Assembly (NCBI GenBank): GCA_000996035.1
Contig: LBYH01000001.1
Span: forward strand, 21,676 to 85,675
Direction: 5' to 3'
Length of the DNA stretch: 64,000 nucleotides
From: Parcubacteria group bacterium GW2011_GWA2_40_143
GTDB taxonomy: Bacteria; Patescibacteriota; Minisyncoccia; UBA9983
In this document: positions 1,974-63,992 of the stretch, piece after piece
Layout: each line of letters starts with the position of its first letter
Numbering within the stretch: the stretch's first letter is position 1
Translations under genes and position numbers: made by a program
Notes under the pieces: generated by a model
Databases searched by the model: none
The model's input: the letters and a program-made list of their open reading frames with translations, nothing else
What the model was told of the DNA's origin: nothing

Positions 1974-4900
1974 TTATTGCACTGGCGTATGATAATATGT
2001 TACCACAATTTTCGCCGAAAGGGCGGTAATATTGGTGCTTGCGTCAACAACCGTCACTTTGAGTGTATTGGAATTGGTCGGGTTTGACGGAGTGGCTATA
2101 TTCAAATCAGAAGCTGAAACTTCATGAATGATGGCAAAAGGTGTCGTAGCGCCGGTTGCCGTTCCTACCGTATAAGTCGCGGCTGTTGCCGAATTAACCT
2201 GAACTGTTACTTGCGATGGCGGCGCGGAATCAGTGGAGAAAACTCCCGTAATTTCCACAAAAGCGCTCTTAATATTATATCCGCTTTCCGGAATCTGCGC
2301 GGTAAAAGTTTGAGAATACTGGCCATCGGATTGGTTCAATGCCGTCTGTTTGGATGTTACGAAAAATTCAGTAGTTCTGGTTTCCGCCTTGCTCGTGGTA
2401 AAAGTACAAGAAGTGTCGCCGCCCAAGCCATAACCTTTGCTTGTTTCATTCCCCGCCTCGTCTTTTGAACGCGCTCTGTAATAATAAACCGTATCAGGAC
2501 TTAAGCCGGTGAGTATGATTTGCTGAGGGTCGCTGTTGTATCCGGAACTTGGCGCGCCGCAAGTTTCATTGCCGCTTCCCTGCGAACAAACGGAAGAAGT
2601 AAAATTCGTCGTGGTGCTGTATTGAACTTGCTTCGTGAAAGTTGAGGACATAGCGTCTGTAAGATACCAGATGATAGTCGCCCCGCCGGCGGTCAAACTG
2701 CCGTGCATCGGGCAAGAAGTGGTTATGGCCGGCGCCGTCGCGTCTATGTAAAAATCCACATCGTTTGGATCCGTATTCCCGCCAAAAGAAACCCAATCGC
2801 TCGGATAATCACCGGTGCCATCACAAGCGGATGTGTGCGTTCCGCCTTTATTGTGGCAAACTCTGGCTTGCCAATGATATTGGGTATTAGTGGAAAGAAC
2901 GGTTGAAACTTGCCCCGTGGCAGGACCCGGGCCGGCTTGTCCCGTGCCTTCCGCCGTTACCGCGTTGGTAAAGGCCACGCCCACCGCTTTGGCTTCTATC
3001 TGCGGATAAAGAGTTCCGCCAGAAACTGAAGCTTGCATTGTCATCTGGAAATATATAGTGGTGGAACTGGCCGCCCCTCCAACGCTTATTGAATCCGTGT
3101 AGCCGGAATTTTTGAATTGATCGAGGACGGACGGGTTGCTAGGAGTATTGGAAAGCAAGGTTAAGTTTAACGCGTTGGAATCATATCCGTTTGACTTAAC
3201 AACGACATTTCCAGAAGCGGCGCCGGTCGGCACTTTTACATTAACGCCAACCGTGGAAGAATCTCCGTTCGCCCAAGTATTAAGCAATGTCGCGTCAACG
3301 GCATTGTAAAAAGTTATTTTATTGTCCGCGTCAAGCGCGCCCGGGCAGCTTGCCGCGCCGGCTTGACACAAATGATTGCCGATAATTTCCACATTATCAC
3401 CCACAGCCGGATTAACCGGATTAAATTCCGTTATCTTCGGCAACACCCTAAACCCATTGGAATCGTAAGCATTATCTTCTTTTGAACCGGTATCGGCGGC
3501 TCTGGTGATTTTAATATCTCCGAGATAAACATTATCCGCTATTGAGGTAGGAACAACCACGGTAATGGCGGTATCAGACCAAGTAACATCAACGGCTGGA
3601 ACGAGAATGTCGCCAAAATTACCGATAAAATTAACCGCGCCTTCCGTAACTCCGAATCGTTTGCCATCAATGTTGATATTATCAGCTTCTCTGGCTTGAG
3701 TGGGTATATTGGTAACCTCCGGGTAAATATAAAAATCTCGTCTTGCATCATCTTGTGTTCCTCCGACAGTCGCCAACAGGCCTTTTCCTGATGCCGCTGT
3801 TCCTCCATAAGTGGTTACTTGAGTTGACGGAATAGTCGCTGAAATAGTGGTGTTGTTGGCGTTGTTACAAGTGAGAGTTGTGCCTTCCACTTGGATTGAT
3901 ATAGAACCACAAACCGTGCCGAAGCCGGCGCCGGTGATCGTAATATTTTGACCATTCCTTGCGCCAAGATTATTTAAAACAGCCTCGCTAATGTTGTCGT
4001 AGGAAGTAACATTTGGACGGATAGTGGTGGAGCCGGAAAGCTGAACCGGATAGGTTCCCGCTTTAGTTGTGCCGTTTTGCAAAGTAAAATCTGTTGAACT
4101 GGTTATTTCCAAATCAATCGCCTGCCCGCCAACAGCACCCATCGCAATATCAAAAACGACATAAACGCAAGTGTAATTACTCCCAACCGTCACCGGTATG
4201 CTTAAACCCGAAAGCGTCATTTTGTCTGTCGTAACATCAAAAGTATCACTCACTAATGTTTCAGTTCCATTATACGCGCAAGTAGCAACTCCGCTTTCGT
4301 ATCTTATGCCCGCGTTAGCGCTTAAATTCGCGTTCGCGTTCACAGTGCCGGCTTCGGAAATAGTCAAAGCAGTAATAGTATCTGCGCTTCCGCTTGTTTG
4401 CTGAAAAGTAAATGCCGCGCCAACATATTGACCGGTGGCACCGGAATCAAGATTGACTGTTTGCGTTCCGCTTGAAGCCGCCGTAACTTGCGGTGGTGCT
4501 GATGTCGTCCCAGAACCCGCAGTACTCAAACCTGTTTGATCTCCATCCTCGTTTTTCGCTTTTGATTGAAAATCATATAGTGTGCCAGCTGTTAGTCCGT
4601 TGATAGTTAAGCTGGTAAGTTGCGTATCAGTTAACCAAACTTCGGTCACTGAAGCGTTACCTAAAGCATTCACCCATTTGCCATTCCAGTTGGCATCAGC
4701 AGTAGTAACCTGCACCGCAAAATTAGTTACGGGATTAGAAAGAGGGTTTCCATTTTCGTTGTTGGTAATAACAAGAGTGGTTTCAGTCGGAGAACCAACA
4801 GCCGGCGCAGTCGGCGTGTTAGCAGAAGTATATAGAGTAGTAATACCGGAATATCCGGTCTCGTTTGGAGTGCCAGCGTTGTCGCGCGCCTTTACCTTAT

Positions 4901-51396: not shown

Positions 51397-51432
51397 AATT
51401 TTATCACACCAAATTTTCTAAAACAACCCCGC

Positions 51433-51469
51433 CCCCCACCATCAAGGACTCCCCTTGATGGTGGGGGTA
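51433..51469. repeat. REP-like palindromic element, copy 2 (CCCCCCACCATCAAGG-ACTCC-CCTTGATGGTGGGGG), inside an approximately 80-nt MITE-like unit at 51402-51483
   Basis: Perfect 15-bp arms. The core is shared with 7 other sites. Confidence 0.8.
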
Positions 51470-51475
51470 ACTTTT

Positions 51476-52249
51476 CTAGCTTTCGCCGGGTTGGAAAATC
51501 TCCTTTAACGCCCAAGGAGCCATAAATTCTTGGATCGCTGAAATTGGAATATCTCCGAATATAGAAAAAGGGCCTTTGTCTTCATTACTATAATCAACTC
51601 CGACGCAGGAGGCCGAGAAAGCTTCCCGTTTCGGGGCAAACATCAAATCACAGCTTGGTTCTCCGTCATATTTAGAAAGCAGCAGCGGTTTCATTATCCT
51701 TACCGCTTCCGCCCAAGCCAAATCATCGCGAAACAGTTCGTTTCCCTCTCTCATCATTTCGCCCTTTTCAAGATCGAAAATAAGATATGTTCGCTTGGGG
51801 TCGCTGGCTTTACTGCCAGACAAATGGTCTGATGATGTAAAAGCCATGGAAATCAAACGCGGAGACATAAGCAATATTTCCGTATCTATATTGAGAGTGC
51901 TTGCTTCCCCGTTATCATCGGCGGCGGTTCTGACACCCCGAATAAAAATATCCTTCAACGCTCCGATATATCCAGCAACATCCTCGTTAATTTTTTCGGC
52001 CAAGAAATCATTGGTGTAAATAACCACATCGGGAATCCTTAAACTTATTAAGAACTTTTTTGGTTCATCCTCTATGGTAATTTTTTGCCATTTTATGACT
52101 GGCTGACTTAATTGCTTTACCACCTGAGAAACCTCTTCTTTTTTATTCCAACGCGGAGTAAATGCTAAAAATGAAATCGCGATAATTATCCCAAAAATCA
52201 CTGCGATGGCTTTTGAAAAAAATTTTCCAGACATAAAAATATCAATCAA
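51476..52249 (-). CDS. Hypothetical exported protein (DUF3298/DUF4163-like, RsiV-type fold suspected)
   Basis: 257 aa. N-terminal transmembrane helix. Weak resemblance to DUF3298/DUF4163 blocks. Low certainty. Confidence 0.45.
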   Translation of the reverse strand: MIDIFMSGKFFSKAIAVIFGIIIAISFLAFTPRWNKKEEVSQVVKQLSQPVIKWQKITIEDEPKKFLISLRIPDVVIYTNDFLAEKINEDVAGYIGALKDIFIRGVRTAADDNGEASTLNIDTEILLMSPRLISMAFTSSDHLSGSKASDPKRTYLIFDLEKGEMMREGNELFRDDLAWAEAVRIMKPLLLSKYDGEPSCDLMFAPKREAFSASCVGVDYSNEDKGPFSIFGDIPISAIQEFMAPWALKEIFQPGES

Positions 52250-52422
52250 TCACCTTCAAAACACCGACGCTTCTTTTATCAACTCGGAAAAATTTTTCAA
52301 AGGCTTTAACCTCGACCCTAATATCGCGCCCAACAGAATTACCGGCGTATTTTATTTTTGTAAAATTTAGTTGAATTGATTTTATCACACCAAATTTTCT
52401 AAAACAACCCCATTTAAACTCT

Positions 52423-52478
52423 AATATTATACCACACCCACTGTCCAAATATGCCATCCAAGGGTAACCCTTGGATGA
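52423..52478. repeat. REP-like palindrome, variant copy 3 (…CATCCAAGGGTAACCCTTGGATG… with outer arms CCACACCC/GGGTGTGG), inside a second MITE-like unit at 52382-52498 that shares the flanks of copy 2
   Basis: The flanks TTATCACACCAAATTTTCTAAAACAACCCC (5') and TAACTTTTCTAGCTTT (3') are repeated at 51402 and 52382. Confidence 0.7.
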
Positions 52479-52572
52479 TGGGGTGTGGATAACTTTTCTA
52501 GCTTTTTCTAATGGAAAGATAACCAATCATCTATCATGGTGCTAAAGTCTTGTTGAGTTAAAAAATACTCAG

Positions 52573-52621
52573 GAAAAGTTTCCTTGCTTAGCACCACCAT
52601 CAAGGGGAGTCCTTGATGGTG
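52573..52621. repeat. REP-like palindrome, copy 4, with 22-bp arms (TTGCTTAGCACCACCATCAAGG-GGAGT-CCTTGATGGTGGTGCTAAGCAA), overlapping the 3' end and stop of the RAYT gene
   Basis: The transposase C-terminus LLSTTIKDSP* is encoded by the repeat. An approximately 25-nt stretch (AAAAATAYTCAGGAAAAGWYTCCTTG) is duplicated at 52562-52586 and 52676-52700 on either side of it. Confidence 0.8.
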
Positions 52622-53286
52622 GTGCTAAGCAAAAGCCAATCGTTTATAAAATCATCAAAATCTTTGCGATTTGAAAAATATTCAGGAAAAGACTCCTTGT
52701 TAATAATCTTTCCCTCCGGCCTGTTACCGTTTTCGCTATAATCAAAATAACTTGAATAAGAATACTCGTTCAAAAAAGAACTAGCTGTGTTTTTATTTTT
52801 AATGCCACTTTCTTTCCATTCCGGCTCTATTAGTTTAACTGGATTTAAATGAATATAGGCAAAAAGATATTTTAAATACTCATCATTATCCGCATGAGTT
52901 GACTTAAAAACCCCTTGGAATAAAGCCCCCGTCCTATTATATCTCTTATTAAAATACATTGAGTATCCTGTAGCCAGCTTGCCCATAAATTTACTGATGC
53001 CTTTTTCTTTTTTCTCTTTAACAAGAAGATGGAAATGGTTAGGCATCAAACAATAAGCTCCAATATCAACAAGAGAGTCTTTTTTATTTATGTTTAATAT
53101 CTTCATCAAGGACTCCCCTTGATTTATGAGGTTGCTTATGTGCACAACATCAACATTGTTGGAAATATAAAGCAAAACAAGAAACCTTAAATAATCGGCT
53201 TTGTCCGAAAAAATATCTCTTTTTTCGGTGCCACGATTGTAGATGTGATAATATTCACCAACAGAAAAAACTATTTTTCTTTCCAT
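52600..53286 (-). CDS. IS200/IS605-family Y1 (HUH) transposase, REP-associated tyrosine transposase (RAYT)-like
   Basis: 228 aa. EYYHIYNRGTEKRDIF (N-terminal beta-strand block), HUH motif YCLMPNHFHLLV, RYNRTGALFQGVFKS…YLFAYIHLNPVK (compare RAYT …GIWQRRFWEH…YIHINPLKHG). Flanked by inverted REP copies (copy 6 lies 14 nt upstream, copy 4 overlaps the stop). A partial REP copy is in-frame inside the gene. Confidence 0.8.
   Translation of the reverse strand: MERKIVFSVGEYYHIYNRGTEKRDIFSDKADYLRFLVLLYISNNVDVVHISNLINQGESLMKILNINKKDSLVDIGAYCLMPNHFHLLVKEKKEKGISKFMGKLATGYSMYFNKRYNRTGALFQGVFKSTHADNDEYLKYLFAYIHLNPVKLIEPEWKESGIKNKNTASSFLNEYSYSSYFDYSENGNRPEGKIINKESFPEYFSNRKDFDDFINDWLLLSTTIKDSP
53104..53123. 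repeat. REP-like partial copy 5 inside the transposase gene, in-frame (encodes NQGESL)
   Basis: CATCAAGGACTCCCCTTGAT. Translated on the minus strand it gives LINQGESLM, the same peptide core as the rlmN insertion. Confidence 0.7.
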
Positions 53287-53300
53287 GCTTTTATTTTAAG

Positions 53301-53335
53301 ACACTTATCCCCAACCATCAAGGACTCCCCTTGAT
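53301..53335. repeat. REP-like palindrome, copy 6 (CCCCAACCATCAAGG-ACTCC-CCTTGATGGTTGGGG), immediately upstream of the RAYT gene
   Basis: 15-bp perfect arms. Opposite core orientation to copy 4. Confidence 0.8.
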
Positions 53336-53354
53336 GGTTGGGGATGTTATAAAT

Positions 53355-54083
53355 TTATTGGAAGTTTTGAAGAAGATTTTGGAGGTCTTGGGATGTGTCT
53401 GGGTTGGCGGCGATGCCTTGTTCTAGAAGAGCTTTGGCTTTGGCTTCGTCTTTGAGAAAATTTCTATAGAAATCATAGAAATTGCGGTAAATGAAAATCA
53501 TGTTTTTACCATTTTCTATCGCCTTTTTATAACTCGCTTCCGCTTTGGTGTTGTCTTTAAGATAATAAGCGTAAAGTTCTCCCAGATTATTGTATGATAC
53601 ATAATTATCCGGACTTATTCTGCCAACGTAATTCCACACGTCCGCCGCGCCTTGATAATCGCCTATTATTTTCCAATATATCCCGAGCACCAGCCAGTTT
53701 TCCACATTTTTCGGATCCTCTCTGAGGCTGGTTGAGATTTCATTGATCTTTTCCATCGCTCTTTCCGCCAAGACTTGGTCTATGCTACTTATCGGTTGAG
53801 CGACTCTATCTAAGAGAGTGGCGCCTTCGCTATCAAGCTTTTTTTCTTCCTCTATTTTTATGGGACTAACTTTAAAATCACCATCGCCTTCAATGGCTAA
53901 ATTTGACCCTTCTATAGTCTTAATGGTGGAAGAGGCGGATTCTATATCTTCGGCAGCATTCTCCTTTGAGTTTAAAGCTAAATCCGAACCGGACTTAGTA
54001 AAGATATCTTTGGATATAAAATAACTTACTCCGCCGACCATAAGCAAGATAAAAATTATAAAAATCAGTTTGTTTTTATTCAT
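53355..54083 (-). CDS. TPR-repeat protein, membrane-anchored
   Basis: 242 aa. N-terminal transmembrane helix. Tetratricopeptide-like helices (…WLVLGIYWKIIGDYQGAADVWNYVGRISPDNYVSYNNLGELYAYY…). Confidence 0.7.
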   Translation of the reverse strand: MNKNKLIFIIFILLMVGGVSYFISKDIFTKSGSDLALNSKENAAEDIESASSTIKTIEGSNLAIEGDGDFKVSPIKIEEEKKLDSEGATLLDRVAQPISSIDQVLAERAMEKINEISTSLREDPKNVENWLVLGIYWKIIGDYQGAADVWNYVGRISPDNYVSYNNLGELYAYYLKDNTKAEASYKKAIENGKNMIFIYRNFYDFYRNFLKDEAKAKALLEQGIAANPDTSQDLQNLLQNFQ

Positions 54084-54136
54084 AGTACTTACATATTAAA
54101 TAATTCCTTATCCTGCGTCAAACCTCGTCATCAAGA

Positions 54137-54211
54137 CCATCAAGGGGAGTCCTTGATGGTGGGGAGTTTTCATTCTTAGTATGTCCGTATCCAAGGACTG
54201 TCCTTGGATAC
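54137..54211. repeat. REP-like copies 7 (ACCATCAAGGGGAGTCCTTGATGGT, 54137-54161) and 8 (variant GTATCCAAGGACTGTCCTTGGATAC, 54187-54211) in the intergenic region downstream of the surface-protein gene
   Basis: Palindromes read directly from the sequence. Confidence 0.75.
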
Positions 54212-54311: not shown

Positions 54312-57300
54312 TTACTTAGATTTGGTGTAGCTGATACCTCCTGACGGAAGCGACGTTACGTTGTAGCCGTTTATCCAATCGTAGTCATTTATTGAGTTTG
54401 TCGTTGTAGTAGCTCTTGGTGACCAGATGAAGTTATTGGCTGCTGTAGCCGCTGCCTCAATATTTACGTAGTTATCAACCAATCCGGCCAAGGAAGGATA
54501 AGCATTGTCACCCTTGAGGGTTACCGTCAAAGAATCTCCTGAAGAAACTCCTGTTATGGTAGCCACTACCTTGAAGTATCTCGTAGCGCCGGCTGGAATC
54601 TCTATTGTCGTAGAAGCGGTGCTAATTTGAGGATAAATTTCAAGGTCGGTTGAAGCTGAAGCCCAGTTGGCTTCCAAATCAACATCAGTGTTCATAAGCT
54701 TGCCTCCTGAGTTTATTCCGGAAATCGGTCCGGTAAATGAACCGTTGCTGTAACTGTCATAAGCGTAAACATTCAAGCTGTCTGCCGTTACACCAGTGGT
54801 GGCAATATTGAAGGAAAGTTTGTACAAGGACATCTTGCCGGCGCTGTCAGCAGTGATGCTGAAGCCCATGATAGTCTCATCTGTCGTACCGGACAAAGAT
54901 GATTCTATGCCGGAAAGTCTCACTACCGTCGGGAATGTTTTAAACATTCTTACGCCGGAGAAAGAAGTGGCTCCTGAAGTTGAAGTAATGGTCGTACCGC
55001 TGGAAGATCCTCTACCTTGCGCATTGCCGGCTCCAATATAGTCAACGGCAATGAGTGCTCCCTGAGTACCCACCTGGCTTGTGCCAATGGCGGCTAAATC
55101 AGCCTTAACTGTCATACTCTTTGTCTCATCTTTACCAATGATGAACTTTGAAGTTCCATCAGTGTTGGTAAGTATGGTTGATGTGCCTGTGCTACCCGTA
55201 AGGATAAGTGTGCCAACTTGCGTTGAACCATCCCACAAAGTTACCTGAGATAAATCAGAAACTGAGGAAGAGGCTGTATTGGTAAGCGTAAGTCCTAGAT
55301 AGGTAAGTTCAATGGCTTCGTTTGCTGAAGTAAAGTCAATTACTCCAAGCGTAACCGTTGAACCTGAAGCAGCTACGGCGTTCGCGGCCGGACTCTGTGA
55401 TGTGTTTTCCGTTACAGTAAGCGTGCCATTCGCTGTAAGCGCCATAGCCTGACCAGTTGAGTCATTCTCAGTAAGAGCAGCGCTTTGACCTGAAGTTACG
55501 CCTGTAACTGTCGGTAAAGCCTCGCTATCGTAACCCCAAGCGTAAGTACCGGTAGCTCCGGCAACAATATTACACTTGAGAGAAATCGTTTTCGCGGTGC
55601 CTTTTGATATAGTAAGCGGATTGTCAAGCGTGAAGGTCGTGGAAGAAGCTGAGGATGAAGTCGGGCTAAGCACATTTGAACCGGTGTTCAATGCTGTTGA
55701 GCCGTCGTATAGAACACAATTGTTCAAGTTCGTGGCGGTATTACCGAATTTCTCATACGCGAATGGGAATGAATTGATTTTTACATCTTCTCCTGATGCC
55801 GTAGCGTCAAAAATGTAGTTGGCAAAAGTGAATTCTTGCGCTCCGGCTACCACTGTTTGAGCGGCCGGATTAGTGGAAACGCTGATGGCCAAAGCCGCAG
55901 CCTTAACTGTCATTGTGTTTCCGGTTACAACAGCTGATGAAGGCGTAATTGAATTGCCTGTTGTCTGGCCGGTAATGCTAGTGAAGTCGGATGAAGGGGT
56001 AGTAGAAGCAACAACTGTTTGGTTGTTGGCAAAATCCGTACCCAATTTTCCTTTAAGTGTATATGTTCCCTTTCCTATCGGGAAAGTTACGGTGTCGGTA
56101 AAGGTTACTGTACCGTATACAGCGGCTCCTGAACCGTCGGCCGGACCGGCTACTATGTTGCCGTTTGAATCAAACAAAGCGATGTTTGTGATATCTTCAA
56201 CTTGGCCGGCAGTGCTGGTAATCTGGAAGTGGTAAACCTGCTGCGCTACCGATATGGCTTCTCCTTTGGCTTCTATCTCAAAACCTCCGAGCGTTACATC
56301 AGATACATTCTCGGCAATATTCTGAGCGGATACCGAAGTGGCCTTGGTTATCGTAAGCGAGCCTGTTGAAACTGTAGCCTGATAAGCATCAAACCATGGG
56401 TTAGCGCTTGAGAAGGCGCCGGTGTCATCCGTGGGATCTGTAGCTCCATTGGCCGGCGTTATGCCATAACCATAGGTCTCTCCCACTACGTTTACATCTG
56501 TTCTCTTGTAGATATCAAAATCTATCGTTCTGCCCGAACCGCTTACAATGTCTCCTTTGATAGACATTTCAATGCTTCCTCCTTTGTCTACTACGATACC
56601 GCTACCGAAAGTGGAAGTGTAGTATTTGCCGTCTGAGGAAACTGTTGTGTCGTAAGCAACACCGTCTATGTATGTCTTTACGTTCTCAATGTCGGAAGTG
56701 GCGGCTGAACCTGATTGATTCCATCTTATGGAATTGAATCTTACTTTCTCGGCTGAACCAGTTGTGAATTTAACTGAAGAGAAAGTGTATCCGGTGGTGC
56801 CTACCTCTTTGTTCTGACCTGATCCCGGGTCTATTGAACCCACGGCCAATGTCGGAACCGAACCGATTGAAAGCGTAGCGTTTATGGTGTGAACCGCTCC
56901 AGTAATTGGAAGTATGCCTGATACCGTGGCTGAAGTGTTGATGCCATTTATAGTAAGGGCTACAATCTGTCCGGCTCTGGTGCTGTTGTCAGCTGCCATG
57001 TTTCCGGCAATCGTCATAGTTTTTGAAGTGCCGGCTTTTACCGTGAAAGTGTCTCCTACCGTAGCCTGGTGATTTGAGTTCAAAGTTTTCTCCAAACCAA
57101 GCTGTGTGTCATTTTCATCTAAAAGCACTATTCCGGAAAAGTTTGAATCGCTTCCTAAATTAGTCCTTTCTATATTGATGCCGGTTACGGTTACATCATC
57201 GGCTCCCGCCGTGAGGGTAACTTTCGTAAACGGAACTCTTGCCGCGCTTTCCGGAGCCAATGTGGCTACCGGTTGCGTCGGGCTGGCTACCGCCAAGCCT

Positions 57301-57956
57301 GTGCCTGTCGGAACGGTTGTGATGACACTTGAGCAAGACTGGCCCGTCGTCGAGCTGAATCCTGTCGCTGAAGTACAACCTTCAGGGTATGTCGTTGTGG
57401 TTGTGGCGCAAGACTGACCCGTTGTCGGGCTGAATCCTGTCGCTGAAGTACAACCTTCAGGGTATGTCGTGGTCGTCGTGGTCGTCGTGGTCGTGGTCGT
57501 GGTTACTGAAGCCGCCAACGAATTGTACTTGGCTTGCGAAACCGAGCCAAAGTATCCTACCGCCGGTGATACGCCGTTGGCTGATTGCCACGCGGCCACC
57601 GCTGTTCTCGTTACCGGTCCGAAGTATCCGGTTGATCCTCCCGAGAATGTATAGTGCCCCGTGCTTTTCAAATAATCCTGCAAGCATGTTACGTCACTTC
57701 CTTGTGAACCTATTGTAAGGCTCTTCGTGAAGGCGCATTCTGCAGTTGCAGTGCCGCCAGTCGCTGTGCCAAGAGCGGCAATCTCAGCTTGGAGCTGCGT
57801 TATCTGCGCAAGCAACTGAGCTATTGTCTCTTCCGTAGTAAGAGCTGACGCCGTTTGAGGCGCGGCCATTACTCCAACGGAAAGGGTCAAAGCGGTTGCG
57901 AATCCAAGAACTACAGAAACAACTTTTCCTAATCTGGTATTTCTAATGTTACTCAT
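54312..57956 (-). CDS. Large (1214 aa) cell-surface protein with an N-terminal peptidoglycan-binding-like domain (PG_binding_1), poly-Thr linker and beta-rich repeats
   Basis: Signal/anchor. …GSQGSDVTCLQDYLKSTGHYTFSGGSTGYFGPVTRTAVAAWQSANGV… is a PG_binding_1-like block. Then TTTTTTTTTTTTT and two YPEGCTSATGFSxTTGQSC repeats. The remainder is Thr/Ser/Gly/Ala-rich. Confidence 0.75.
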   Translation of the reverse strand: MSNIRNTRLGKVVSVVLGFATALTLSVGVMAAPQTASALTTEETIAQLLAQITQLQAEIAALGTATGGTATAECAFTKSLTIGSQGSDVTCLQDYLKSTGHYTFSGGSTGYFGPVTRTAVAAWQSANGVSPAVGYFGSVSQAKYNSLAASVTTTTTTTTTTTTTYPEGCTSATGFSPTTGQSCATTTTTYPEGCTSATGFSSTTGQSCSSVITTVPTGTGLAVASPTQPVATLAPESAARVPFTKVTLTAGADDVTVTGINIERTNLGSDSNFSGIVLLDENDTQLGLEKTLNSNHQATVGDTFTVKAGTSKTMTIAGNMAADNSTRAGQIVALTINGINTSATVSGILPITGAVHTINATLSIGSVPTLAVGSIDPGSGQNKEVGTTGYTFSSVKFTTGSAEKVRFNSIRWNQSGSAATSDIENVKTYIDGVAYDTTVSSDGKYYTSTFGSGIVVDKGGSIEMSIKGDIVSGSGRTIDFDIYKRTDVNVVGETYGYGITPANGATDPTDDTGAFSSANPWFDAYQATVSTGSLTITKATSVSAQNIAENVSDVTLGGFEIEAKGEAISVAQQVYHFQITSTAGQVEDITNIALFDSNGNIVAGPADGSGAAVYGTVTFTDTVTFPIGKGTYTLKGKLGTDFANNQTVVASTTPSSDFTSITGQTTGNSITPSSAVVTGNTMTVKAAALAISVSTNPAAQTVVAGAQEFTFANYIFDATASGEDVKINSFPFAYEKFGNTATNLNNCVLYDGSTALNTGSNVLSPTSSSASSTTFTLDNPLTISKGTAKTISLKCNIVAGATGTYAWGYDSEALPTVTGVTSGQSAALTENDSTGQAMALTANGTLTVTENTSQSPAANAVAASGSTVTLGVIDFTSANEAIELTYLGLTLTNTASSSVSDLSQVTLWDGSTQVGTLILTGSTGTSTILTNTDGTSKFIIGKDETKSMTVKADLAAIGTSQVGTQGALIAVDYIGAGNAQGRGSSSGTTITSTSGATSFSGVRMFKTFPTVVRLSGIESSLSGTTDETIMGFSITADSAGKMSLYKLSFNIATTGVTADSLNVYAYDSYSNGSFTGPISGINSGGKLMNTDVDLEANWASASTDLEIYPQISTASTTIEIPAGATRYFKVVATITGVSSGDSLTVTLKGDNAYPSLAGLVDNYVNIEAAATAANNFIWSPRATTTTNSINDYDWINGYNVTSLPSGGISYTKSK
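57353..57505. repeat. Tandem duplication (two copies of about 80 nt) followed by a (GTCGTG/GTCGTC)n microsatellite encoding the poly-Thr tract
   Basis: CTGAATCCTGTCGCTGAAGTACAACCTTCAGGGTATGTCGT occurs at 57353 and 57433. GTCGTCGTGGTCGTCGTGGTCGTGGTCGTGGTT follows. Confidence 0.7.
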
Positions 57957-62141: not shown

Positions 62142-63152
62142 ATGGCATTCACGAAAAAAAGCGCCAAGGCGCCAAAAGAAACAAACATCGGCGTGGAAAA
62201 CGCCTTAAAAGACATTAAAGCCAAATACGGCGAAGGATCAATCATGAAGCTTGGTGAAACACCTAAGGTAAATATTGGCGCCATATCCACCGGCTCCTTG
62301 AGTCTGGATATCGCCCTTGGCGTAGGTGGCATGCCAAGAGGCAGAGTGATAGAAGTTTACGGTCCGGAAAGCTCCGGCAAAACCACGCTCGCCCTAAACG
62401 TAATAGCCCAAGCCCAAAAGAAAGGCGGGGTTTGCGCCTTCGTGGATGCCGAACACGCTCTTGATCCGGAATATGCCAAAAAACTCGGCGTTAAAATAGA
62501 CGACTTGTTGGTGTCGCAACCGGATAATGGAGAACAAGCTCTTGAGATTACGGAAAGTCTGGTAAGAAGCGGTGGCATAGATGTAGTAGTGATAGACTCC
62601 GTGGCCGCTCTTACTCCAAGAGCTGAGATTGAGGGAGAAATGGGCGCTTCTCACGTAGGCTTGCAAGCCAGACTTATGTCGCAAGCGCTAAGAAAGCTTA
62701 CAGCCATTACCGCCAGGTCTCATACTATCGTTATTTTTATAAACCAAGTTAGAATGCAAATAGGCATAATGTTTGGCAATCCGGAAACTACCCCGGGCGG
62801 CAAGGCCCTTAAATTCTACTCTTCCGTGCGCGTGGAAGTAAGAAGAGCGGCGCAGATCAAAAAAGGTGAAGAGGTGGTGGGCAACAGAGTAAAATGCAAA
62901 GTGGTGAAAAATAAAGTGGCGGCGCCGTTTAAAATAGCCGAATTTGATATTGTATTTAATGAGGGTATATCCTACGAGGGCGATATACTAAATCTTGGGG
63001 AGAAATACGAAATTATAAAAAAATCCGGCGCTTCCTATTCCTACGGCGCCACTTCTCTTGGACGCGGCTACGATAAAGCTAAAGAATTCTTGAAAGAAAA
63101 CCCAAAAATAACTCAAGAGCTGGAGAAAAAAATAAAAGAAGCGGCGGCATAA
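62142..63152 (+). CDS. recA: Recombinase RecA
   Basis: …[51 protein letters not shown]…, RecA loop L1/L2 regions present. Confidence 0.95.
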
Positions 63153-63195
63153 AAAAAGTCCGCAAGATTAACCATTAATATCTTGACAAAAAAAT

Positions 63196-63534
63196 ATGAC
63201 TACTCACACAATGAAATTATCCGGACTACCCTTTGAAAAAATAACGAATGGCAAGAAAATTATTGAATCAAGGTTATACGATGAAAAACGCCAACAAATT
63301 AATATTGGTGACCAAATAGAGTTTTCTTGCAATGATGAACCGAAAAAAAAGGTTACTACAAAAGTAAAAGCGCTTTACAGATATGAATCGTTTAAAGATT
63401 TATTTTCTGATTTTCCTCCCGAATATTTCGGTAGCAATTCAAAAGATGAATTAATTAAAGAAATTGAAACCTTTTACTCAAAAGAAGAACAAAAAAAATA
63501 TGGTGTTATTGGGATAAAAATAGAACTGATTTAA
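63196..63534 (+). CDS. ASCH-domain protein
   Basis: 112 aa. MKLSGLPFEKITNGKKIIESRLYDEKRQQINIGDQIEF matches the ASCH N-terminal beta-barrel signature (GxKxxExR…GD). Confidence 0.65.
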   Translation: MTTHTMKLSGLPFEKITNGKKIIESRLYDEKRQQINIGDQIEFSCNDEPKKKVTTKVKALYRYESFKDLFSDFPPEYFGSNSKDELIKEIETFYSKEEQKKYGVIGIKIELI

Positions 63535-63566
63535 CTCTATCTCCGCGGTAAACATACGCTGTTCAA

Positions 63567-63625
63567 AATAAAAGAAGCGGCGGCATAAAAAAAGTCCGCC
63601 TTGAAAAACAGCGGACTCTAAGATA
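63567..63625 (+). terminator. Second copy of the recA 3'-end 35-mer followed by a hairpin (AGTCCGC-N11-GCGGACT). Probable original recA terminator, now displaced downstream of the ASCH gene.
   Basis: AAAATAAAAGAAGCGGCGGCATAAAAAAAGTCCGC is present at 63128-63163 and again at 63567-63600. Only the second copy is followed by the stem. Confidence 0.5.
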
Positions 63626-63922
63626 TTTTAAAAATAGAATTTAACTTAAAATAAACGATTTTTAAGGTCTTTTTCAACGACCTTGTTGTCAACATTTCCC
63701 CAAGATAATGCTCTGATTAACCATGAGCAAGATTTTAAGGTTATACAAAATAAAGAAAAAAAGACGTTTAAAACTCTCATACTAACACTGATTTTGGGCG
63801 GTTTGGGCGCCCAAGTCCATCCATTACTGTTTTTCATCTTTCCTCTCCTTTATATAATAAGGAAAAAAATAAAGTACGATTTTATCTGATTCAATAGTAA
63901 ACCAAATTATTTAAATAAGCAA

Positions 63923-63992
63923 GAAATAAAGTGGCGTAAATTAAAATTTTGAGACGCGTCTCAAAATTTTAATTTACGCCACTTTATTTCTT
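63923..63992. repeat. 70-bp perfect palindrome (AGAAATAAAGTGGCGTAAATTAAAATTTTGAGACGC|GCGTCTCAAAATTTTAATTTACGCCACTTTATTTCT)
   Basis: Read directly. 35-bp arms with no loop, centred on GACGCGTC. Confidence 0.8.

Follow-up and report, generated by a model that had tools for sequence, protein, structure and literature searches.

Copies of the recA tail bracket a horizontally exchanged ASCH module in Patescibacteria

The locus described here raises the question of why the end of a recA gene is present twice, on either side of a small gene for an ASCH-domain protein, in a bacterium of the Patescibacteria (or candidate phyla radiation, CPR). It lies in a 64,000-nucleotide (nt) stretch of DNA from Parcubacteria group bacterium GW2011_GWA2_40_143 (contig LBYH01000001.1, positions 21,676 to 85,675; assembly GCA_000996035.1), which is referred to below as the window and supplies all coordinates unless a relative is named. 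The genomes of Patescibacteria are tiny and hold few classical mobile elements, cultured genetic systems are lacking, and gene gain in this group is poorly known. Taken as a whole, we consider it likely that the repeats bound a horizontally acquired module of ~2 kb, that the module entered by recombination at the recA tail, and that later deletions have reduced it in this strain to an ASCH gene whose product may once have countered or complemented that of a lost partner gene.

The recA-tail repeat and its surroundings

Two exact copies of the 35-mer AAAATAAAAGAAGCGGCGGCATAAAAAAAGTCCGC are present in the window, both on the plus strand, one at 63129-63163 and the other at 63565-63599. No third site was found in the window even when 3 mismatches were allowed, and the number of matches in 100 dinucleotide-preserving shuffles was 0, with none expected by chance. 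An initial annotation of this DNA had described the repeat as the last 35 nt of recA. The two exact copies do exist, but their positions had been placed 1-2 nt off, and the repeat consists of the final 21 coding nt of recA, its TAA stop codon (63150-63152) and 11 nt past the stop. The parts of the locus are given below (L numbers, here and later, are our handles for related loci).

62142-63152, plus strand: recA, 336 amino acids (aa; Pfam RecA 457 bits, RecA_C 68 bits)
63129-63163, plus strand: direct repeat copy 1, made up of the recA tail KIKEAAA, the stop codon and AAAAAGTCCGC (A-run and left terminator arm); 35/35 identical to copy 2; L105 homologue at 2435-2468
63164-63195, plus strand: left end of the module, the ASCH 5' leader AAGATTAACCATTAATATCTTGACAAAAAAAT, where high identity to L102 and L106 starts
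63196-63534, plus strand: small ASCH-domain gene, intact, 112 aa (PF04266; GxKxxExR motif)
63535-63576, minus strand: remnant of a tandem-GNAT-ASCH gene, codons 56-69 (tblastn with the L105 protein); its final 12 nt overlap repeat copy 2
63565-63599, plus strand: direct repeat copy 2, in which the recA tail is displaced or duplicated and its stop codon has no function, leading into the terminator; L105 homologue at 4457-4490
63593-63617, no strand: hairpin AGTCCGC-CTTGAAAAACA-GCGGACT (11-nt loop; -12.1 kcal/mol), likely a bidirectional terminator, kept in L105
63646-63837, minus strand: conserved 63-aa open reading frame (ORF) on the right flank of the site (from the ORF list; an ORF of 61-63 aa stands at the same position in L001, L097 and L105)

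The ASCH ORF is separated from the repeat copies by 32 nt on the left and 30 nt on the right. As had been claimed from the letters alone, a terminator hairpin follows the second copy only: fold energies place the hairpin at 63593-63617 next to copy 2, whereas copy 1 runs into merely a weak 5-bp stem. Seven T (63587-63593) come after the hairpin when it is read on the minus strand, and CTAAGATATTTT when it is read on the plus strand. The T-run suggests that it also terminates the convergent unit of the 63-aa ORF and rplK (in relatives, rplK, nusG and secE come after this ORF on the minus strand). Our promoter/terminator scan did not call this hairpin, owing to its 11-nt loop. Between recA and ASCH the window has no terminator, so that co-transcription of ASCH with recA is likely. 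A promoter-like TTGACA-N18-CACAAT at 63183-63212 overlaps the start of the ASCH ORF and was not used as evidence.

The identical arrangement recurs in at least 14 contigs that were assembled independently (NCBI, ENA and JGI), which excludes an assembly artefact, and the same sequence is found in Parcubacteria GW2011_GWE2_40_8 / GWF2_40_10 from Rifle groundwater. An identical RecA is encoded on 23 contigs, including GCA_000995735.1 (Parcubacteria GW2011), all 23 of which carry ASCH and both repeats. Rfam detected no known RNA element at the repeats, nor in the leader of the GNAT gene described below.

Empty, filled and decayed sites

Relatives were found by a RecA protein search together with exact-protein look-ups, and further loci by a metagenome scan with an ASCH alignment (80 loci). 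A RecA scan of genome contigs yielded only relatives of at most 71% identity, too distant to judge an empty site. Comparison of the recA downstream region in related genomes, which the initial annotation had proposed, did reveal sites without the insert: L096 (RecA 87% identical in aa) and L097/L098 (85%) have no ASCH, and the terminator hairpin stands directly after the recA stop. Gene order in these relatives is FtsK, a Glucodextran_B-domain gene, recA, a small ORF (61 aa), rplK, nusG and secE.

What had been inserted is seen in the sister strain L105 (RecA 99.4% identical in aa and 94% in nt; named Candidatus Terrybacteria by its source). Here recA with copy 1 (2435-2468) is followed by ASCH (2501-2839) and a hairpin, then by a minus-strand gene of 449 aa (2895-4244) and, beyond it, by copy 2 (4457-4490), the same terminator, the 63-aa ORF and rplK. 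The two copies are 31/34 identical and bracket 1988 nt, while those of the window now bracket 401 nt. The earlier proposal of a repeat-bounded insertion between recA and its terminator is thus upheld, but since the L105 repeats flank a two-gene module, the inserted unit was not the 339-nt ASCH ORF. That ORF does lie between the copies, as stated; its standing there alone is secondary, the outcome of two deletions that removed nearly all of the second gene.

The traces of that gene can still be read in the window, where 63576-63535 corresponds to aa 56-69 of the L105 449-aa protein with 12/14 residues identical (tblastn), the matching nucleotides being L105 4038-4079. By this match the 30-nt 'spacer' at 63535-63564 is an internal remnant of the GNAT-ASCH gene. 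A read-through extension of ASCH in frame into copy 2 (LYLRGKHTLFKIKEAAA) had also been considered and was dropped, as these 30 nt are antisense GNAT remnant. Measured against L105, two stretches are missing from the window, one of 1198 nt (L105 2840-4037) and one of about 388 nt, the latter deletion sitting at a 12-nt microhomology, AAAA[G/T]AAAAGAA, between the GNAT gene and repeat copy 2. A search with the L105 449-aa protein found no second copy of its gene in the 64-kb window.

Three domains make up the 449-aa protein, namely GNAT at 59-157, another GNAT fold at about 181-334, and ASCH at 343-447 (motif GRKPLEVR), as judged from Pfam and an AlphaFold2 (AF2) model with a pLDDT (predicted local distance difference test) of 85. 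The best Foldseek matches of this model are tandem-GNAT proteins. A nuclease or recombinase had been entertained as its middle domain, and was rejected when AF2 and Foldseek gave a second GNAT fold. Relatives of the protein number 783 at E <= 1e-10, of which the best 120 of 783 are 63-92% identical. Just 5' of the GNAT-ASCH Shine-Dalgarno sequence lies a conserved CTAC...GTAG hairpin (L105 4245-4300; same position in L106, L112, L132 and L155), and the ~100-nt leader holds further conserved blocks; together these may form a regulatory leader, with no Rfam match. L155 holds at 2033-2335, ~160 nt upstream of an ASCH/GNAT module, a group I intron (Rfam RF00028, 89 bits; gathering threshold 50), around which neither a tRNA nor an rRNA host gene was detected.

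Contents of the site vary among relatives. ASCH stands alone in the window and in L099-L101 (Paceibacter, RecA 84%), where it likewise lies behind recA, while ASCH and GNAT-ASCH are both present in L102, L105-L109 and L112; the GNAT gene is truncated or frameshifted in L110 and L111, and the L113 contig shows the 3' part of the gene only. The ASCH of L102 is 97% identical to that of the window and stands behind a different recA. All ASCH homologues of at least 78% identity are directly behind recA, and the module is found at exactly the recA tail in five deep lineages. Two side observations were made in these sets: the ASCH behind recA in L099 (GCA_013360865.1) is frameshifted (84 aa, 4083-4337) and that of L100/L101, with identical RecA, intact (4083-4424), no GNAT gene being present there; and two RecA relatives, P0002 (544 aa) and P0034 (427 aa), are annotated far longer than 336 aa and may represent fusions or read-through.

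Identity along the locus changes sharply at the edges of the module. Window 63164-63534 is 96.5% identical to L102, the adjoining 609 nt of recA only 72%. In a comparison of L105 with L106, recA is 70-78% identical, the stretch that begins where copy 1 ends and reaches the GNAT start codon is 92-100% identical, and the sequence past it 40-50%; over the last 60 nt of recA the figure is still 75-80%, the rise coming only at the module edge. The synonymous divergence (dS) of recA reaches 3.86 (saturated) when the window is set against L106, compared with 0.11 for ASCH and 0.23 for the GNAT gene, and even between the window and L105 that of recA (0.28) exceeds that of ASCH (0.10). The module has been exchanged horizontally between lineages, and in this respect the suggestion that the inserted DNA is mobile proved correct. 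We hold this structural and evolutionary reading of the locus with high confidence.

Routes of entry

The sequence of the repeat depends on its context, being AAAATAAAAGAAGCGGCGGCATAAAAAAAGTCCGC in the window, AAAATTAAAGAAGCGGTAAAGAAGGCGAGCGTGTAGAAT in L112 and TTGGTTTGAGGTTGGGAAGGGG in L128. In L112, a different species whose recA is 74% identical in nt to that of the window, the same module is bracketed by a 39-nt repeat (38/39) of that species' own recA tail, with a terminator after copy 2. The module also has repeats outside the recA context: in L128/L129/L131 they are 22 nt from the tail of a histidine-kinase gene, the current protein ending in ...FWFEVGKG and the displaced end reading ...FWFSVGKGV, with different stop codons. 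L132 has a repeat of 149 nt (~78% identity) around the module. Against a cross-locus null these repeats gave p < 0.002 for L105, L112 and L132, and p of about 0.02 for L128; a 21-nt 'repeat' in L155 is ambiguous, the motif being present three times there. The ends of the module have no conserved sequence and no inverted repeats, and both left and right ends vary between contexts.

Relatives with the same arrangement and no obvious repeat, which the initial annotation would have taken to mean coincidence, do occur (L102, L106-L111). At their right end, however, a decayed native recA tail persists with the terminator, and the repeat is therefore no coincidence. The recA genes of L106, L108, L110 and L111 are 92-93% identical to one another and 89-90% to that of the empty-site L097, which they resemble at informative sites except in the last ~12 coding nt (GTGAGCG...), where the likeness is to L112. 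On the right side of the module these four loci read AATTAAAGAAGCCGTTCAATAA followed by the hairpin; the right half of this remnant equals the native tail still used by L097 (GCCGTCCAATAA), and its left half has the codon ATT, as in L112/L113. Reciprocal recombination of an L112-type tail repeat with the resident tail, and then a 12-nt slippage between AAAGAAG units, would be expected to give this pattern, with a foreign tail ahead of the module and a remnant beyond it that is donor on the left and native on the right. The copies also co-vary at the last recA codon: the window has GCA twice, and GGA stands in copy 2 of L105 and copy 1 of L185, which suggests that the repeats were re-formed or homogenised after the strains split.

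From this pattern we propose, at a little less than an even chance, that host recombination brought the module in. The module (the 112-aa ASCH gene and the convergent 449-aa tandem-GNAT-ASCH gene, widespread in Patescibacteria) would insert between the recA stop and the terminator shared with the 63-aa-ORF/rplK operon, entering by homologous recombination of the host at a recA-tail copy that it brings along. It might arrive as a circle with one repeat (Campbell-type) or as a linear piece bounded by both; in either form, recombination with the resident tail would regenerate a repeat on each side, the repeat being both scar and homology arm. In the window strain the two later deletions erased all but 42 nt of the GNAT gene and left ASCH alone between the repeats. 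The junctions under this model would be GAGCTGGAGAAAAAAATAAAAGAAGCGGCGGCATAAAAAAAGTCCGCCTTGAAAAACAGCGGACT at an empty site, CGCTGTTCAAAATAAAAGAAGCGGCGGCATAAAAAAAGTCCGCAAGATTAACC for a window circle or tandem, and ...ACTACTTGTC-repeat-AAGATTAACC for an L105 circle or tandem. No recombinase was seen in the module or within ~4 kb on either side of it at any locus.

A number of observations weigh against entry by host recombination. Both copies in the window lineage are of the resident type, whereas a donor circle of the L106 type (module 93-97% identical) would leave a foreign tail in copy 1; an extra step is then needed, be it re-integration within the lineage, gene conversion, or allelic replacement of an older module. 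Homologies of 35-39 nt are near the lower limit for RecA-dependent recombination, and the ATT-codon evidence for the donor-left part of the L106-type remnant rests on very few nucleotides. No flanking repeat was detectable in ~20 of the 27 testable loci, nor in the three loci found through the GNAT protein (L187, L188 and L190). In the window's own population (the 23 contigs with identical RecA, together with the cluster members P0363 and P0364) ASCH is present on all contigs with identical or near-identical RecA, and no empty site or circular form was seen. Lastly, the first origin of a repeat at a new site, for instance at the L128 histidine kinase, lies outside the model, and template switching or a staggered break is possible there.

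Could the repeat be a mere scar, made anew by template switching (as in microhomology-mediated break-induced replication or fork stalling and template switching, MMBIR/FoSTeS) or by repair of a staggered break? The replication fork or 3' end would exit after the left terminator arm, copy the module from a different DNA molecule and re-enter 35 nt upstream. Such a process would account for first insertions at new sites like the L128 histidine-kinase tail, for duplications of variable, site-specific length (22, 34-35, 39 and 149 nt) and for a module without conserved termini, inverted repeats or recombinase. It does not predict the foreign-tail and hybrid pattern of L106-L111 and leaves unexplained why five deep lineages have the module exactly at the recA tail, and the left junction GTCCGC|AAGATTAAC shows no microhomology with an L106-type donor; we regard it as improbable for this locus. 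Long vertical inheritance of a recA-ASCH(-GNAT) arrangement, lost in L096 and L097, with the repeat kept by gene conversion or arising as a chance or functional terminator-proximal repeat, would fit the close ASCH homologues all standing behind recA, the lack of an obvious repeat in L102 and L106-L111, and the branching of the module carriers L112 and L113 outside the group of L097 and L106-L111. The dS of the module, 17-35 times below that of recA between lineages, has already largely refuted this reading, and the sharp identity edges also oppose it. An old neutral copy would moreover have decayed, yet the copies are 35/35 and 38/39 identical, and the displaced native tail in L106-L111 matches the tail in use in the empty-site L097. 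We therefore assign vertical inheritance a very small probability.

Site-specific integration by a tyrosine or serine recombinase acting in trans, the repeats being attL and attR as in islands at gene 3' ends, is suggested by the target-gene 3' end and stop within the repeat, by the displaced copy at the far end and by the use of the same target gene in several lineages. We think it very improbable, as the neighbours within the ~4-kb flanks (FtsK, the Glucodextran_B-domain protein, RecA, the 63-aa ORF, L11, NusG and SecE) include no recombinase, and neither does the module; there is also no shared core, the repeats following the resident recA tail and being unrelated sequences in other contexts. 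A tRNA target was rejected because no tRNA genes stand at the module borders, and phage cargo because viral contigs gave just one weak match (49%), at a contig edge. The gene cassette of the initial annotation comes close to a further reading, in which a transposase or other cut-and-paste enzyme acting on an ASCH cassette duplicated its target site. Direct repeats do immediately flank the insert, and a Y1 (IS200-like) transposase with hairpins resembling repetitive extragenic palindromes (REPs) is present elsewhere in the window. Nevertheless, 35 nt is far above known fixed target duplications, the length varies (22-149 nt), the module has no transposase, terminal inverted repeats, subterminal hairpins or conserved ends, and comparison with L105 makes the ASCH-only unit a deletion derivative. 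Y1 transposases are not known to duplicate their target. As for an integron cassette, 63535-63636 folds no better than shuffles (z -1.4) and is made up of GNAT remnant and recA tail, and the 4 kb looked at around it, a part only of the 64 kb in which intI could lie, showed no integrase. The locus gave no sign of an integron, and a target-site-duplicating transposon is the least probable of the readings considered here.

Several repeated structures lie elsewhere in the window. Five copies of a 35-nt palindromic hairpin (CCCCCACCATCAAGGACTCCCCTTGATGGTGGGGG) occur in both orientations at 51398-54165. Those at 52591-52625 and 53309-53343 stand on either side of a minus-strand ORF of 228 aa (52600-53286) with a match to Pfam Y1_Tnp (IS200-like, E 1.9e-11), an arrangement like that of REPs and their associated transposases (REP/RAYT). 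An exact 33-nt direct repeat is found at 51398 and 52379. A tandem 74-75-nt repeat (92% identical) at 57333-57481, near the 5' end of a 1214-aa minus-strand ORF (54312-57956), encodes TTTT...YPEGCTSATGF segments. Between the rplK 3' end and the 63-aa ORF is a perfect 72-nt palindrome (36-bp stem, no loop; 63921-63992), probably the rplK terminator though unusually long; the homologous hairpin of L105 (about 4795-4860) has a loop. A truncated Y1 (IS200-like) transposase ORF was also seen in L132 (4819-5064), ~470 nt beyond the right-hand 149-nt repeat.

Predicted roles and comparison with known systems

The window ASCH protein matches PF04266 with 39.9 bits (gathering threshold 21.2; E 7.6e-10), its residues 12-112 covering positions 7-102 of the 103 in the profile. 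Its octapeptide, following the definition GxKxxExR with catalytic Lys and Glu/Thr (bioRxiv 10.64898/2026.02.27.708502), is G19-K20-K21-I-I-E24-S-R26, of which K21, E24 and R26 are invariant in 32 homologues. The gene is under purifying selection (dN/dS, the ratio of nonsynonymous to synonymous divergence, about 0.15 against L105 and L106). Its closest solved relatives in the PDB are the uncharacterised Pyrococcus proteins PH0355 (E 2e-13) and PF0455, and no sequence match to YqfB was found. Escherichia coli YqfB is an N4-acetylcytidine (ac4C) amidohydrolase (PMC6972931), and 19 diverse ASCH proteins strip ac4C from tRNA, with the motif Lys and Glu essential (bioRxiv 10.64898/2026.02.27.708502). 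By family and motif the small ASCH is a putative ac4C or N-acyl deacetylase, which may counter or complement GNAT-ASCH as eraser to writer or, toxin-like, as antidote to toxin. These biochemical roles are tentative, and we judge them rather less probable than an even chance.

A role as eraser or antidote would explain why ASCH is kept where the GNAT gene decays. Among loci found through ASCH the GNAT gene is intact in ~25 distinct contexts, frameshifted or truncated in ~12 (the window included) and absent in ~15, ASCH being intact in nearly all; where loci were found through the GNAT protein, the small ASCH is kept in 3/3. Two points count on the other side: the asymmetry is biased, most loci having been found through ASCH, and the two genes are convergent and not an operon, which is unusual for toxin-antitoxin pairs. 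Identity as a defence system was also considered and rejected, PADLOC giving no meaningful match.

With empty, filled and decayed states in near relatives, the locus is a clean and datable example of gene gain in the Patescibacteria. It suggests a simple route, in which host recombination alone would move a cassette bracketed by a short duplicate of a conserved gene tail. The locus further defines a gene pair that is widespread and strongly conserved, linking an acetyltransferase to the newly recognised ASCH ac4C deacetylases and suggesting a writer/eraser or toxin/antidote system. As a speculation that we consider unlikely, ASCH/tandem-GNAT-ASCH might be a recombinase-free selfish cassette of Patescibacteria that brings along a tail copy of its upstream gene (here recA itself) and employs host RecA to settle beside that gene in new genomes. 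It would persist by imposing on a nucleic acid or nucleotide an acetylation (e.g. at cytidine N4) reversed only by the small ASCH; the window strain would then be a cured host that has kept the antidote.

Among known systems, the integrase-type island and the transposon can be set aside, as their defining features were looked for and not found. With islands at gene 3' ends the locus shares a repeat that holds the 3' end and stop of the target gene and a displaced copy beside the original terminator. In contrast to them it has no integrase, no fixed core and a length of only 2 kb, and its repeats track the resident recA tail of each lineage. Closer parallels are found in natural transformation, where Campbell-type insertion-duplication and homology-facilitated illegitimate recombination (HFIR) have been described (PMC3240628). 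Here too there is no dedicated recombinase, a short homology would act as anchor and the targeting fragment is duplicated on both sides, a pattern with which the hybrid repeats of L106-L111 agree. The differences are that the homology is just 35-39 nt, that this is a naturally recurrent cassette and not a laboratory construct, and that HFIR proper would call for one illegitimate junction. The minimal mobile elements (MMEs) of Neisseria are alternative gene cassettes between conserved genes, exchanged by transformation and homologous recombination (PMC1538595, PMC3082526). Like an MME, the present site lies between conserved genes (recA and rplK-nusG-secE), has variable contents (empty, ASCH, or ASCH with GNAT-ASCH) and no mobility gene, and is exchanged horizontally; crossovers in MMEs, however, fall in the flanking genes and leave no duplication, whereas here identity jumps at the module edges and a duplicated tail of 35-39 nt brackets the module, seemingly serving as the homology.

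In gene content the nearest counterparts are the (PIN-)GNAT-EVE operons with an ASCH protein, predicted to be toxin-antitoxin-like or base-modification systems (PMC7641849). Both combine a GNAT domain fused to a PUA-like domain that binds modified bases with an adjoining stand-alone ASCH, both have a patchy, mobile distribution, and both are known from sequence only. The Patescibacteria pair differs from these operons in that ASCH takes the place of EVE as the fused domain, the GNAT is tandem, neither a PIN domain nor an AAA_17 ATPase is present and the genes are convergent. For the YqfB-type and ASCH erasers of ac4C a pairing with GNAT-ASCH has not been described, and the deacetylase role proposed here is a prediction; what the small ASCH protein has in common with them is a single domain of ~110 aa and the GxKxxExR motif, including the Lys and Glu that are essential in TthASCH, EOLA1 and TRIP4.

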